Below are positions 6,545 through 13,133 of a DNA stretch of 64,000 nt, in pieces. Within the stretch, counting starts at the first letter, position 1; the number at the start of each line of letters is the position of its first letter. The stretch is taken from the IMG/VR virus record IMGVR_UViG_3300037067_007160, positions 1 to 64,000 of that record. The stretch is one strand, 5' to 3'. The translations under genes were made by a program, and so were the position numbers. Under the pieces are notes generated by a model that saw only the letters and a program-made list of their open reading frames with translations, was not told the DNA's origin and did not search any database. This stretch comes from a virus (lineage: Duplodnaviria > Caudoviricetes).

Positions 6545-8773
6545 TTAGTCACAGTTCTGCATTGCTTCATCGCAGACTTCGTCAACTTCAGATGCCTGGA
6601 TACGCTTGGCCTCGAGGTTGGCCTGATACTCAGCCAGATGATCAACGATCCTCTTGCCAGCCATGCGCTCCAGAGACATGGCGAACACAACATCCTTGTT
6701 CGCCCAGGCCCTACCAGCCAAGCCAATCATCAGTTCCGTGGTCCCAAGGACCGGAGTCAGGAACTGAATCCTGGACTTGACGTCGCCCTTATACTTGACG
6801 AACGACTGCCTGCGCATCCTGTCCATCTTGCACCGGTCAGTAACGCCATACTTCTCGGCGACCCACTGACCAAGGACAGACATGTTGACCCGAGACACAG
6901 GCTTCCAGCCACGGAACAGGGAAGCAATACGGTAGTAGAAGCTACCGGACAGCTCCTTGTCCTCAGGCAGAGAGGCCAATGCATCGAAGTCCATACTCCT
7001 GACCGCGCGGAAATACTCCCTGACCCGCAGGGCCAGATCCACTTCAACACCATACCGGGTCGCCATCCCTGGGATGACACGACCATTCCTGGTCTTGAAG
7101 TCCTCAAGCCTAGGTGCCCACAGGCCACCAGGCGTATACTTGATGGAATCGACGAACTGTTGAACTTCAGTGGACATCATCTTCAGATAGATGCCCATCA
7201 GAGTTCTTCTGTCCGTCTTCCCTTGAGCACGGAGCGCATCGAGGACGACCATACACATATTAGTCGTCCTACCGATGAGTCCATAGCCCTTCAGGCCATC
7301 CACCATGACCTCGTGAACATTACGAGGATCATCGCCCTTGCCCTTGGTAGGCAAGGTCAGCCACTTGGCAGCCCATTCCCTATCAGGGAATGTAGGCTTA
7401 CCATCAGCGCCAGGCTGTCCCTGCTTGGTCCAGTCCGGGAAGATCTCCGGACTGAGGTCAATACGCTTGAGCAGACGACCCAGCTCCATAACCATGAGCA
7501 GGTCGCCATCGTAATCCTTGCCCAAGCAACCGACCATCCAACTGCTATCAGTCCCAATAACATGGGAACTGATATCAGACTCAACCCAGAACGGCAACAT
7601 CCAGGGCGGGCAGAACGCCAGCCTCTTTCTGTTAGCCGATTCCAGGTTAGGCATGGCAACGCCATAGGCGCCGGCCACCTTGAAGCACAGGGCCTTGGTG
7701 ATAGCAGTACCCGCAGACCTGAACACCGCATCCCGGATGTCGCTCTGTTCCAGCGGTTGACCCCGCTTAAGGAACTGGAACTCCATCGGATGATTGGGTT
7801 CACCAGTCTTCGGATCCTTATACTCACCAAGCGCAAGCACTTCACCAAGGCTTGCGTTGCCCTCAACGACACGACGCACGAGACCGAGCCTATCCATGAT
7901 GACAGGATCCGTATCCATGAGATTACCAATCTCAGGATACAGCCACTGCATCACGTCCAGGGCCAGCTTCGGCATCCTGTCCTTGGCCTTGCTACTACGA
8001 GCTTCGGCCGTCAGGTCAGGCAGATAGCCCATCAGACCAGCCAGCAGCCCTGAGTTCTCCCAGTGCTCCTTGAGCTTGACAGCATCCTTAGGGATGACCA
8101 TGTCAATCCCAGGCGCCCACATTTCCATTTTATACATGGGCAACACACGGGCACTGGCCTTGATGGGCCACAACTTGTCACCGTCGTGAATGTTGTTGGA
8201 CGAGGCATAGACCTCGGACACATACACCACGCCACCCAGCTCGATATCAACGAGCTTGATGACAGGCGGAATCCCAAACCTAATGGGATCAGCCAACACC
8301 AACGGTGACCTGGCCACCTTATCACGGGAAGACATCTTGGAAGGATCCACGCCGAGGACGGAGTGATAGAGTGAATCCATCACATCCTCCTTGGCATAGA
8401 AGAACTTCCCGGCAGCTTTCGCTGCCCTGCCTCCACCGGTAGGCCACTTAGGCTTACCATACTGAGGAACGTAGCCCTTAGCCACGGAGCGCTTCACCAG
8501 GTCCATATACTCCCTGGGATCAAAGCGCCCGGACAACCAAGTCCGTGCCTTCGGATCCCAGAACGTACGTTGAACCATGATGGTACGCTCCATGAACTTG
8601 CGCATGCCACAAGTGGCACTGCCCAGGTCCCGTTCACTCATACACCAACGCAAGAACTTGCCATTGGCGTAATCGAACGACGTAACCAAGTTGAGCCGAG
8701 GATTACCATCCTTATCCTCAGACAGCTCAACTACCATGTCAGGTATTACTTTACCTCTGTGGATACACAACAT
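6545..8773 (-). CDS. YonO/eukaryotic-RdRP-like single-chain two-barrel polymerase
   Basis: Catalytic GKDYDGD (DYDGD at 7502-7516) plus ordered family motifs KVARSPL, IKA, DMVIPKDAVK, LIGRTTN and QQFVDSIK. Confidence 0.75.
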   Translation of the reverse strand: MLCIHRGKVIPDMVVELSEDKDGNPRLNLVTSFDYANGKFLRWCMSERDLGSATCGMRKFMERTIMVQRTFWDPKARTWLSGRFDPREYMDLVKRSVAKGYVPQYGKPKWPTGGGRAAKAAGKFFYAKEDVMDSLYHSVLGVDPSKMSSRDKVARSPLVLADPIRFGIPPVIKLVDIELGGVVYVSEVYASSNNIHDGDKLWPIKASARVLPMYKMEMWAPGIDMVIPKDAVKLKEHWENSGLLAGLMGYLPDLTAEARSSKAKDRMPKLALDVMQWLYPEIGNLMDTDPVIMDRLGLVRRVVEGNASLGEVLALGEYKDPKTGEPNHPMEFQFLKRGQPLEQSDIRDAVFRSAGTAITKALCFKVAGAYGVAMPNLESANRKRLAFCPPWMLPFWVESDISSHVIGTDSSWMVGCLGKDYDGDLLMVMELGRLLKRIDLSPEIFPDWTKQGQPGADGKPTFPDREWAAKWLTLPTKGKGDDPRNVHEVMVDGLKGYGLIGRTTNMCMVVLDALRAQGKTDRRTLMGIYLKMMSTEVQQFVDSIKYTPGGLWAPRLEDFKTRNGRVIPGMATRYGVEVDLALRVREYFRAVRSMDFDALASLPEDKELSGSFYYRIASLFRGWKPVSRVNMSVLGQWVAEKYGVTDRCKMDRMRRQSFVKYKGDVKSRIQFLTPVLGTTELMIGLAGRAWANKDVVFAMSLERMAGKRIVDHLAEYQANLEAKRIQASEVDEVCDEAMQNCD

Positions 8774-10645: not shown

Positions 10646-10863
10646 TTGTTTCCTCCTTCTTCGATGAGTGTGGACAGCATATGTTCAGCCGCCCTCTTTC
10701 TCTTATCCAGTTCCTTCTGTTGCTGTTCAATCAACGCCAACTCGGCAAGGTACATTCTGATCCCCTGTTCGAGTTCCTGAGTTCTCTTTCTGAACGGAAT
10801 GAAGTTGTACAGTGTGTACAGCAACACTCCGATCACACAGATACTTCCGATGATCGTCAACAT
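10642..10863 (-). CDS. Membrane-anchored coiled-coil protein
   Basis: N-terminal hydrophobic helix; GGAGG RBS. Confidence 0.65.
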   Translation of the reverse strand: MLTIIGSICVIGVLLYTLYNFIPFRKRTQELEQGIRMYLAELALIEQQQKELDKRKRAAEHMLSTLIEEGGNK

Positions 10864-10945
10864 GTTCTAGTTCCTCCTTTGTTAGTGGTCTTATTTGTGA
10901 CTTGTACCATCTGAATCCCGCAATTTCCATTACTTTCTCCTTTCT

Positions 10946-11170
10946 TTATTTATTAAACGCTTTCTTATTAATTTCTTTTTCTTCTTCAGTCATCTTTCCA
11001 ATAAAGACCAAATGATACGGTCTTTTGGTATTGATGTTCATGTACACACGCACATGTTTCTTGTTGAACTCATCACGTGTGAGGTGATTGTGCGCGATGA
11101 CGTACGATGTCGTAGCATACGTCATGATAAACACAACAATGCAACTGATAACAACCGTGATCTTTTTCAT
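10946..11170 (-). CDS. Hypothetical exported or membrane protein
   Basis: Signal-like N-terminus; AGGAG RBS. Confidence 0.6.
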   Translation of the reverse strand: MKKITVVISCIVVFIMTYATTSYVIAHNHLTRDEFNKKHVRVYMNINTKRPYHLVFIGKMTEEEKEINKKAFNK

Positions 11171-11241
11171 TGTATTTCTCCTTTGGTTGAGTAGTTTAGT
11201 TTCTTATGCGTGTATCATGGAATGCGCATCCCTCCATACTG

Positions 11242-11511
11242 CTATTGAGGCTGTTGCTCGGACGACTTCTTCTGTTCTTCAACTTCTTTCAGCGCGGCAG
11301 CGAGGACCTTTCCTTGGTTACGCACCTCAAGGAAGCCAGCCTTCAGACCATCCAAGAAGGACTTACCCTTCTCAATGGTTGTCTTGGCCTTTTCCCTGCT
11401 CTGCTCAGCCAGTTTGATCACCGTCTGCTCAACCACAGTGATACCGATGGCGACGTTCTGACCGATCTTCCGCGCAGTTTCATTGTTCGTGTTCATTTTT
11501 ATTTCCTCCAT
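11242..11511 (-). CDS. Hypothetical helical protein (likely start MNTNNE)
   Basis: GGAGG RBS precedes the internal ATG. Confidence 0.6.
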   Translation of the reverse strand: MEEIKMNTNNETARKIGQNVAIGITVVEQTVIKLAEQSREKAKTTIEKGKSFLDGLKAGFLEVRNQGKVLAAALKEVEEQKKSSEQQPQ

Positions 11512-11549
11512 GTTTGATTTCTGATTGATACGTGCCTAGATATAGGCAT

Positions 11550-11605
11550 GGACTCATCAGCGTGAGTTTTACCCACGGATGCCCGATAATCTGGGCATTT
11601 CGTCC
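11550..11605 (-). ncRNA. Hammerhead ribozyme, type II (HH1)
   Basis: GGAC-GAAA-UGCCC-AGAUUAUC-GGGCA-UC^-CGUGGG-UAAAA-CUCACG-CUGAUGA-GUCC. Complete catalytic core with three stems; AUC cleavage site between 11578 and 11577. Confidence 0.93.
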
Positions 11606-11610
11606 TTTAC

Positions 11611-11682
11611 TTATTCTCTACCAAGGAACAACTCTTCCACTTCTGAGTCTTCTGTTGATTTGATTCTGATTTCATTAAACAT
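11611..11682 (-). CDS. Small acidic peptide (23 aa, MFNEIRIKSTEDSEVEELFLGRE)
   Basis: Read by hand; GGGAGG RBS; lies between the two hammerheads. Confidence 0.45.
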   Translation of the reverse strand: MFNEIRIKSTEDSEVEELFLGRE

Positions 11683-11709
11683 TTTAGTATCCTCCCTTCT
11701 AGTTTAGTG

Positions 11710-11943
11710 TTACTTGCAGCAGGCCAACAGCGGAGCAATCCCATTGAAGAAGCTAACCAATGAGATACCCAGCACCAACAACGTAGCCATACCCAAAGCA
11801 GCATGGATATGAGCATCAGTCACTTCGACCCGAACTTCATGCACCAACATACCCTGCCAGAAGGCGGACAGGAAGTCGGTACGACCACTTCGGATACTGT
11901 GCCGATACGCATACCTAACTGCATTCATCATGTTCGTATTCAT
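11710..11943 (-). CDS. Small protein with C-terminal TM helix, between the hammerheads
   Basis: GGGAGG RBS; hydrophobic C-terminus. Confidence 0.65.
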   Translation of the reverse strand: MNTNMMNAVRYAYRHSIRSGRTDFLSAFWQGMLVHEVRVEVTDAHIHAALGMATLLVLGISLVSFFNGIAPLLACCK

Positions 11944-11973
11944 TGTGTTGCCTCCCTTTAACTACATGTCTGA

Positions 11974-12033
11974 AGGACTCATCAGCATAGGCATTACCTA
12001 TGTACACCCTGTTACTCTAGGGTGTTTCGTCCT
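11974..12033 (-). ncRNA. Hammerhead ribozyme, type II (HH2)
   Basis: AGGAC-GAAA-CACCCU-AGAGUAAC-AGGGUG-UA^-CAUAGGU-AAU-GCCUAUG-CUGAUGA-GUCCU. Complete core; GUA cleavage site between 12003 and 12002. Confidence 0.93.
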
Positions 12034-12036
12034 GTA

Positions 12037-12150
12037 CTATTTCAGTTTCTTTGCTTGATCAACGCAGTAACGAGCCCAACGATGATCACCTGTGTTGATT
12101 GCACTGATTGCCATATCCATCCACATGTCCATCATCTCTTGAATGTTCAT
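12037..12150 (-). CDS. Small protein (37 aa, MNIQEMMDMW...)
   Basis: Read by hand; shares the leader GGAGGCAACACAATGAA with the gene starting at 11943. Confidence 0.6.
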   Translation of the reverse strand: MNIQEMMDMWMDMAISAINTGDHRWARYCVDQAKKLK

Positions 12151-12310
12151 TGTGTTGCCTCCTTTGTACCCATTCTTGTTTTGGCCCATCAATACACGGA
12201 CCTAACCATCTGTCTTCACTTGTAGCAGCCCACACTATAGCTGCAATGTACATCAACGCAGCCATTACTAGCACTATGATGTTATTTCCATGATGTTCTA
12301 CCCTACGCAT
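12086..12310 (-). CDS. Small membrane protein (likely start MRRVEH)
   Basis: GGGAGG RBS; one hydrophobic helix; 3' end overlaps the next ORF. Confidence 0.45.
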   Translation of the reverse strand: MRRVEHHGNNIIVLVMAALMYIAAIVWAATSEDRWLGPCIDGPKQEWVQRRQHNEHSRDDGHVDGYGNQCNQHR

Positions 12311-12357
12311 ACTACCTCCCATGTACAGCATTTAGTATTAACTACTACTTCAAATCG

Positions 12358-12386
12358 TGAGCAGTTTAATGACATGCTCAGGTCAC
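12358..12386 (-). ncRNA. Compact H-type pseudoknot
   Basis: GUGAC-C-UGAGCA-U-GUCAU-UAAAC-UGCUCA: S1 5 bp, S2 6 bp, intergenic. Confidence 0.6.
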
Positions 12387-12397
12387 ACTATAAGCTA

Positions 12398-12541
12398 CTA
12401 GTTAAGTGATGCTGTGCCCTTACTGATCCACATGTTGTTCTGATACACCATCTCCCATATCAACGTATGTCTCATTTCAGCGTTGATGTTATTCATCTTA
12501 CGGAACGACATGTTGATCTCATACAACTCATTCATTGTCAT
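12398..12541 (-). CDS. First gene of the left arm (47 aa, MTMNELYEIN...)
   Basis: Read by hand; GGGAGG RBS. Confidence 0.55.
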   Translation of the reverse strand: MTMNELYEINMSFRKMNNINAEMRHTLIWEMVYQNNMWISKGTASLN

Positions 12542-12683
12542 TGTAGCCTCCCTTTATTTAAGGTGCACTTATGTTTCCATTACGACCCCGCCGGCATTGA
12601 ACTAAAGTCCAGATTTCAAAGACATATACACCTAGTGAACGGAAATTTATAGAATTTCAAATTATTAATGGTTTCATATATTA

Positions 12684-12693
12684 GTGATATAAT
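12684..12693 (+). promoter_or_regulatory. Extended -10 promoter (GTGATATAAT)
   Basis: TGnTATAAT consensus at the head of the right arm; the same decamer occurs at 33351 and 47835. Confidence 0.65.
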
Positions 12694-12719
12694 GAAACTG
12701 GAGGTGTATATGATATGAT

Positions 12720-13133
12720 ATGATATCAACGGAGAGAGTAAGAAGATGGAGACACAAAAATCCAACTAGAGCAAAAGAACATAGTAGAAAACAGTTAGTT
12801 GGTGACATTGAAAATAAGACATTTAATTATAGGAAAATTCAGCAACGAGCTAAAGAAGGAAATATTCCAATGGATATAACATTGGAAGAATATAAAAAAG
12901 TCGTAGAAGGGAAAAAGTGTCATTATTGTAGAGTTGGTGATCTTCCAAAATATGGTGGTTGTATTGATAGAAAAAATAATAGTCTAGGTTACACACTTGA
13001 TAATATAGTTCCTTGTTGCGCATCATGTAATGATATGAAAGGGCATCTTCTATCATATGATGAAATGTTGATGATATGGAAGGTAAGAATGAAAGAAGCA
13101 AAGGTAGTTGATGTTTCAGATATAATCAGTTAA
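12720..13133 (+). CDS. HNH endonuclease-like protein
   Basis: CHYC...IDRKNNSLGYTLDNIVPCCASCN; AT-rich relative to neighbours. Confidence 0.8.
   Translation: MISTERVRRWRHKNPTRAKEHSRKQLVGDIENKTFNYRKIQQRAKEGNIPMDITLEEYKKVVEGKKCHYCRVGDLPKYGGCIDRKNNSLGYTLDNIVPCCASCNDMKGHLLSYDEMLMIWKVRMKEAKVVDVSDIIS

Follow-up and report, generated by a model that had tools for sequence, protein, structure and literature searches.

When two self-cleaving ribozymes bracket a pair of genes in a phage operon, is the message simply cut into linear pieces, or is the RNA between the two cuts built to be closed into a circle? This question is raised by a locus of the IMG/VR virus record IMGVR_UViG_3300037067_007160, in which two hammerhead ribozymes, HH2 and HH1, lie one after the other in a leftward block of small genes. 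The stretch of DNA that was analysed (positions 1 to 64,000 of the record, 64,000 nt; called here the window) had been read by a first-pass annotation as encoding an RNA that is released by the two ribozymes and joins its own ends. Hammerheads occur by the thousands in phage genomes, and to our knowledge neither a biological role nor a benefit from RNA processing has been proven for them in any phage.

Two complete type II hammerheads

The upstream ribozyme, HH2 (12033-11974), and the downstream one, HH1 (11605-11550, or from 11607 if the preceding AA is counted), both lie on the minus strand, as do all of their parts given here, and both were recognised from the sequence, by structural scanning and by a covariance model. 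Each has the order of a type II hammerhead (stem II 3' strand, GAAA, stem III hairpin, U-H, stem I hairpin, CUGAUGA, stem II 5' strand); loops close stems I and III, stem II has an open end, and in each the core is complete (C3 U4 G5 A6 N7 G8 A9, G12 A13 A14, A15.1-U16.1, and an H17 that is not G). In HH2, the stem II 3' strand (12033-12029) and GAAA (12028-12025) are followed by a stem III hairpin of 7 bp, with A15.1-U16.1 counted, an A as H17, a stem I hairpin of 6 bp, and the CUGAUGA core (11985-11979); the stem II 5' strand runs from 11978, and the native stem II has 5 bp. By hammerhead numbering, in which U16.1-H17 is followed by N1.1, the scissile bond is predicted to lie after A12003 and before C12002. 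In HH1, GGAC (11605-11602) and GAAA (11601-11598) precede a stem III of 6 bp by the same count, a C as H17, a stem I of 6 bp that includes one G.U pair, CUGAUGA (11560-11554), and GUCC (11553-11550). Here the native stem II has 4 bp capped by an A.A mismatch, and the same numbering predicts cleavage after C11578, before C11577. Only the core and stem II are common to the two ribozymes; stems I and III and their loops are unrelated in sequence. Rereading of the sequence placed all of these features at the minus-strand positions given to them in the first-pass annotation, whose description of two complete type II hammerheads with the same core and stem II and with different stems I and III is accurate to the base.

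In the majority of type II hammerheads, loop I forms a pseudoknot of at least 4 bp with the 3' tail (Perreault et al. 2011, PMC3088659). By inspection, at most 3 bp of this kind could form in HH2 and none in HH1; consequently, activity at the Mg2+ concentration of the cell is not assured. Directly 3' of HH1 and upstream of the next ribosome binding site (RBS) lies a further hairpin of 6 bp (11532-11547, minus strand), in which the sole substitution found in a close relative, L126, keeps the pair as U.G. This hairpin has an 8-nt string in common with the 3' half of HH2 stem I.

A structural scan of both strands, run on the window and on the entire 130-kb record, found no well-formed hammerhead besides HH1 and HH2; the other candidates in the record have stems of 3 bp. 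A covariance model (R1) built from 102 aligned type II hammerheads of other IMG/VR phages, with the window left out, gives HH2 62.2 bits (E 5e-15) and HH1 56.3 bits (E 2e-13). In the alignment of this class, changes on both sides are seen in 14 of the 16 pairs, among members that had been preselected by a pairing filter. The HH1 and HH2 motifs are far beyond chance.

The Rfam hammerhead models that had been suggested for a search gave no proper match at this locus. At the gathering threshold, no hammerhead was found in the whole window, and RF02276 had no match on the whole record or at the locus. Scans by E-value (1-kb, 86-nt) returned as their sole match a mis-folded Hammerhead_3 of 16.7 bits on HH2. 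However, the same search misses known consensus arrays elsewhere, giving zero matches in six other phage loci that each hold up to ten canonical type II motifs, and the negative result at this locus is therefore uninformative. Loci with canonical motifs in which Rfam 15, as run here, reports no hammerhead include L003, L013, L015, L090, and L097, and its negatives for hammerheads are not to be relied on.

The RNA predicted to be excised, and its genes

Cleavage at both sites would release an RNA of 425 nt (12002-11578, minus strand; a length obtained by arithmetic from the two predicted cleavage sites), to which HH2 would contribute its stem I hairpin and core at the 5' end and HH1 its stem III hairpin at the 3' end. 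The earlier claim that cutting frees a 425-nt fragment with a 77-aa and a 23-aa ORF and their RBSs agrees with the coordinates, the cleavage itself being a prediction. The sequence supports double cleavage as a step that would give a two-ORF RNA of this length with 5'-OH and 2',3'-cyclic phosphate ends.

The 77-aa ORF (11943-11710, minus strand) has its own Shine-Dalgarno RBS and encodes a protein whose C-terminal half is hydrophobic. Its homologues are P0001 and P0002 only, the protein of the diverged relative L125 being 79% identical; no Pfam family and no relative in IMG/VR was found for it. The 23-aa ORF (11682-11611, minus strand), also with its own Shine-Dalgarno RBS, has its stop codon at 11613-11611, 3 nt ahead of the AA of HH1. 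When this ORF is aligned with its counterpart in L125, there are 8 synonymous changes and 0 amino-acid changes, and the peptides are identical; it is very likely a real micro-protein gene. Upstream of the excised segment, a 37-aa ORF (12037-12150, minus strand) ends with a stop codon (12039-12037) 3 nt ahead of HH2, and its homologue in L125 has 79% nucleotide identity. Downstream of HH1 lies an 84-aa ORF (11242-11496, minus strand), and HH1 stands ahead of it in every readable contig that carries this ORF. Each ribozyme starts 3-5 nt past a stop codon and ends 17-40 nt ahead of the next RBS.

The record belongs to a large tailed phage, in which the large terminase, portal, major head protein, and tail sheath were found. 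Near 12,600-12,720 there is a divergence point, with structural genes running rightward and a block of small unknown genes running leftward, and the two ribozymes are reached after about 0.55 and 1.0 kb of this leftward block. We infer that the leftward operon is early from its position beside the divergent intergenic region. A scan of 10800-12900 for sigma-70 promoters and terminators gave a number of sites not above that in shuffled sequences. Farther along, 2.8 kb downstream of HH1, is a 742-aa ORF (6545-8773, minus strand), also conserved in L126, for which Pfam offers no family at E 0.01. Three wastewater runs that are labelled cDNA, and are probably DNA, contain contigs of about 151 nt from this stretch, and some of these span both cleavage sites. 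They show neither a joint from 11578 to 12002 nor an accumulation of ends, and as DNA-like contigs of no usable depth they bear on neither expression nor cleavage nor circles.

Conservation in a mosaic region

A blastn search of the INPHARED phages gave no match to this phage, and the contigs found with TerL in IMG/VR and metagenomes were all too short to extend to the locus. In addition, DNA patterns specific for HH1 and HH2 had no other match in IMG/VR, and ORF1 had no homologue beyond itself. Three relatives were reached via homologues of the small ORFs: L125, a contig of 1,088 nt and the only diverged one, and the close relatives L126, a 24-kb contig, and L127.

HH2 of L125 is 96% identical to that of the window, compared with about 79% identity in both flanking ORFs. 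There are 3 changes, and two of these are compensatory, turning an A-U pair of stem I into a G-C pair; the same G-C pair is present in stem I of the L126 ribozyme. This compensatory exchange is good evidence for selection on the fold. L126 and L127 keep both ribozymes, and in HH1 only the loops have changed. In L125, HH2 and both ORFs of the excised segment are kept, but HH1 is absent from the 125 nt after the 23-aa ORF (37% identity over this stretch); the 23-aa ORF is followed by the RBS of a different gene, HH1 and the 84-aa gene having been replaced. The tail of HH2 also varies. In L125 it starts with the A that is the consensus of the class, and the native stem II has 4 bp; L126 keeps the UU of the window. 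The spacing from stop codon to ribozyme is the same in L125 and L126. Taken together, the sequence, the model scores, and the compensatory change support both the identity of the ribozymes and the predicted excision product.

A 160-nt insertion (12151-12310), present in the window and in L126 and missing from L125, carries a small hydrophobic ORF (an 81-aa frame, 12086-12331, that overlaps the 37-aa ORF). The small genes form a mosaic of cassettes that can be exchanged. Contigs of run X3 end abruptly at several cassette borders. The intergenic block at 12311-12397 (minus strand; from the first 47-aa ORF to the next ORF) has 90% identity in L125, compared with 60% for the preceding ORF, and its core of about 75 nt (12314-12386, minus strand) is nearly unchanged in L125 and L126 and has no Rfam match. 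This block could act as a structured RNA or as a site of regulation.

Type II hammerheads in other phages

IMG/VR was scanned with a pattern for type II hammerheads that have the stem II found here, and at least 119 contigs matched. Among the matches listed, the scanner recognised 212 non-redundant hammerheads in 103 loci, and 45 of these 103 non-redundant loci hold arrays of 2-12 ribozymes on one strand. Neighbours within arrays (114 pairs) are 239-3380 nt apart, mostly 250-1000 nt, a range that includes the 425 nt of the window pair. Thus, the HH1/HH2 locus has the layout of the clustered phage hammerheads: both ribozymes on the coding strand, with cleavage sites 425 nt apart and two ORFs in between. 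The pair also conforms to the class in sequence. The GUCC/GGAC stem II is present in 148 of the 212 sampled phage hammerheads and, in the 109 for which the search pattern did not force it, in 41%. The native stem II has 4 bp in 91% of the sample, A is found at -5 in 146 of 150 and at +5 in 114 of 149, and A or G is found at -6 in 58 of 150.

Two other features of the sample deserve mention. Past stem II, the commonest tail of the sampled phage type II hammerheads starts AUCA (29 of 149); with the G that follows, these letters are exactly complementary to CUGAU, the first five residues of the core. With a tail of the AUCAG type, the cleaved downstream product could fold the core into a small hairpin; the tail of HH2 (11969-11977) keeps 4 of the 5 bases. 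Furthermore, in the large arrays L097, L110, and L114, which have 8-12 ribozymes, runs of a single stem II type are found in some cases, strict alternation in others, as in L110, where the incompatible types GUCC and GAUC alternate. Such alternation might reflect the avoidance of mis-pairing between neighbours.

For prophages, Perreault et al. (2011, PMC3088659) described clusters of hammerheads that flank genes, found that all sites of three clusters are cleaved in vitro, and proposed that the transcripts are processed into single-gene or operon-length mRNAs. A review in 2019 lists mRNA processing by phage hammerheads as a suggestion only (PMC6765202).

Proposed processing of the operon RNA into linear pieces

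These findings are best explained by a model in which the RNA of the early operon cuts itself as it is made. In this model, HH1 and HH2 would be active type II hammerheads in the intergenic spacers of the leftward early operon, each folding and cleaving itself during synthesis of the polycistronic RNA. This would yield three pieces: a leader with ORFs 1-3, the 425-nt RNA with the genes for the 77-aa and 23-aa proteins, and the rest of the message downstream. At each cut, the downstream product would start with a 5'-OH and a stem I hairpin, the upstream one would have a stem III hairpin and 2',3'-cyclic phosphate at its 3' end, and all products would remain linear. The likely benefit would be that the stability and translation of neighbouring cassettes become independent of each other and insulated from their context, as suggested by the chemistry of the ends and by the behavior of synthetic ribozyme insulators. 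We consider it probable that co-transcriptional self-cleavage into linear, hairpin-capped pieces, giving the cassettes independent fates, is what the pair does. The two motifs are conserved and are members of a large class in phages; we infer that they cleave in vivo, that cleavage affects the fate of the mRNA, and that the timing is early.

Cleavage might instead be conditional. The stem II 3' strands lie just 3-8 nt past the upstream stop codons, a position at which a terminating ribosome would cover the strand and delay folding, and cleavage would then be coupled to translation of the upstream ORF, to Mg2+, or to a factor. Spacing that is kept in both L125 and L126 fits such a switch, as does the absence, on inspection, of the usual stabilising pseudoknot, and regulated cleavage has been raised for phage hammerheads (Perreault et al. 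2011, PMC3088659). However, the argument is one of position, simple packing of an intergenic spacer gives equally tight spacing, and no ligand-binding or sensor element is visible. A switch is an unlikely alternative to constitutive cutting.

Would the excised RNA form a circle?

The first-pass annotation had described the 425-nt RNA as pre-organised to self-circularise. According to this idea, a cross stem II of 6 bp would bring the ends of the RNA together in a nicked hammerhead, and either this hammerhead or a host ligase of the RtcB type would then seal a circular mRNA resistant to exonucleases. The geometry is right, since the 5' end of the fragment supplies stem I, the core, and the stem II 5' strand, and the 3' end supplies the stem II 3' strand, GAAA, stem III, and H17. 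The chemistry also suits the formation of a circle: hammerheads are able to ligate, and 5'-OH and 2',3'-cyclic phosphate ends are substrates of RtcB. The arms of the cross helix are GUCCUU (11978-11973, minus strand), which is the HH2 stem II 5' strand plus UU, and AAGGAC (11607-11602, minus strand), which is AA plus the HH1 stem II 3' strand, and they form 6 bp, compared with the native 5 in HH2 and 4 in HH1. Such an excess over both native stems is uncommon in the sample, being found in 1 of 109 neighbour pairs. In addition, the UU tail is present in both lineages that have HH1 (the window and L126), and the consensus A takes its place in L125, which has none, a correlation drawn from only two independent lineages.

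A closer look at the class makes this pairing less telling. GUCC/GGAC is the class consensus, and any neighbouring type II hammerheads with consensus stem II give ends able to rebuild a nicked hammerhead. When the HH2 strand with its UU tail is matched with the sampled partners of the GGAC type, it forms at least 5 bp with 97% of them and at least 6 bp with 56 of 150 (37%). The geometry proposed for the chimeric hammerhead and the length of its stem II agree with the sequence; however, the 2 extra bp are to be expected in about one third of random pairings, and the 6-bp cross helix is not beyond chance. Nor are compatible stems II kept throughout: in other arrays, 48 of 109 neighbour pairs (44%) form 2 bp or less across, and L125 retains HH2 and both ORFs with no HH1 to pair with. 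With nearly half of the neighbours incompatible in the 103 loci among the matches listed, closure by a hybrid hammerhead cannot be the general purpose of the arrays.

Folding of the 425-nt RNA gives the cross helix a probability of 0.05 (0.11 in L126) and places it 1.4 kcal/mol above the minimum. The helix is more probable in 53 of 60 shuffles of the interior (median 0.81), in a test of low power, as RNAfold gives a probability of only about 0.01 to the native stems II as well when the precursor is folded. A search of the 130-kb record, estimated to be 52% complete, found none of the RtcB, Rnl2-type, or T4 Rnl1-type ligase families, the Rnl1 search having been run without a positive control. 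By inspection, the only ORF across the would-be junction is a frame of 9 codons without an RBS.

Matching between neighbours in other arrays was also considered as support for circularisation and was set aside. Neighbours match in stem II in 43 cases, compared with 33.8 in arrays shuffled in order (p ~0.0005), and those with unlike stems I also match above the shuffle (p ~0.0015). However, stem II compatibility decays smoothly with lag along the arrays (0.52, 0.44, 0.30, 0.20) and the stem II types come in runs, a pattern that fits blocks of shared ancestry rather than a requirement between pairs.

Both the layout and the idea of circularisation were published in 2011: Perreault et al. (PMC3088659) noted that cleavage and ligation could give spliced or circular products, and neither was detected when sought in other clusters. 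The description of the product as a circular mRNA or a viroid- or retrozyme-like RNA is not supported either, given that the ribozymes share no repeat, that stems I and III are unrelated, and that only 6 bp would join the ends. The circular-RNA reading is possible but unsupported, and the data do not require it. We regard sealing of paired ends into an exonuclease-resistant mRNA as quite improbable; for the fuller proposal, that the two-gene RNA is closed in infected cells by a hybrid hammerhead or host RtcB and that the UU tail is an adaptation for end pairing, we would give slightly longer odds still. If it is true, a natural circular mRNA made by ribozymes would be known for the first time from a DNA phage.

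Finally, a mosaic region in which a 160-nt insertion comes and goes and HH1 is replaced along with the 84-aa gene in L125 shows that the presence of hammerheads varies between relatives, but it is highly improbable, and the least probable of the alternatives, that HH1 and HH2 play no part in expression and are inactive remnants or selfish elements carried along with shuffled cassettes, as both cores are perfect and HH2 is held at 96%, with a compensatory change, while neighbouring genes fall to 79%.

Comparison with known systems

Self-cleavage of the operon RNA into linear pieces, the reading preferred here, has its closest precedent in the prophage clusters of Clostridium scindens, Azorhizobium caulinodans, and Agrobacterium tumefaciens (PMC3088659). 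In both cases, type II hammerheads of the coding strand lie in the spacers of a phage operon, on either side of a single gene or a short run of genes, the proposed role is the processing of polycistronic RNA, and circular or spliced products have already been considered. Here, in contrast, the record is that of an uncultivated, myovirus-like phage from landfill or groundwater samples, the genes are different, and there are only two ribozymes. Furthermore, the HH2 tail allows a native stem II of 5 bp and a cross stem of 6 bp where 4 bp is usual, and there is no obvious pseudoknot between loop I and the tail.

The likeness to retrozymes and to hammerhead viroids and satellites is more limited. 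These RNAs too (PMC7761336, PMC7229834) are excised by two hammerheads, have 5'-OH and 2',3'-cyclic phosphate ends, and can in principle rebuild a hammerhead from those ends; however, each of them is bounded by copies of a single repeated ribozyme (type I or III), does not code for protein, pairs extensively with itself, and is documented as a circle. At the HH1/HH2 locus, stems I and III differ altogether in sequence, no unit is repeated, and two proteins are encoded in the RNA. In place of extensive self-pairing of the monomer, there is only the 6-bp helix, with its probability of 0.05.

Two engineered systems are also instructive. In the insulator RiboJ, a ribozyme that cleaves itself between transcription units gives the message a 5'-OH and a hairpin cap and shields it from the context upstream, much as is envisaged for this pair. 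In the Tornado cassette, two flanking twister ribozymes give ends that RtcB can join, which is likewise reminiscent of HH1 and HH2. However, RiboJ and Tornado are synthetic, with long complementary stems that hold the ends together, and the natural pair offers only 6 bp. The layout itself has been known in phages since 2011, and the HH1/HH2 locus adds another example to it. It is a compact one, with two perfect cores, one of them with a compensatory change, around two very small conserved genes, and it could be used to test whether cutting by ribozymes sets the stability or translation of mRNA in the early operons of phages.
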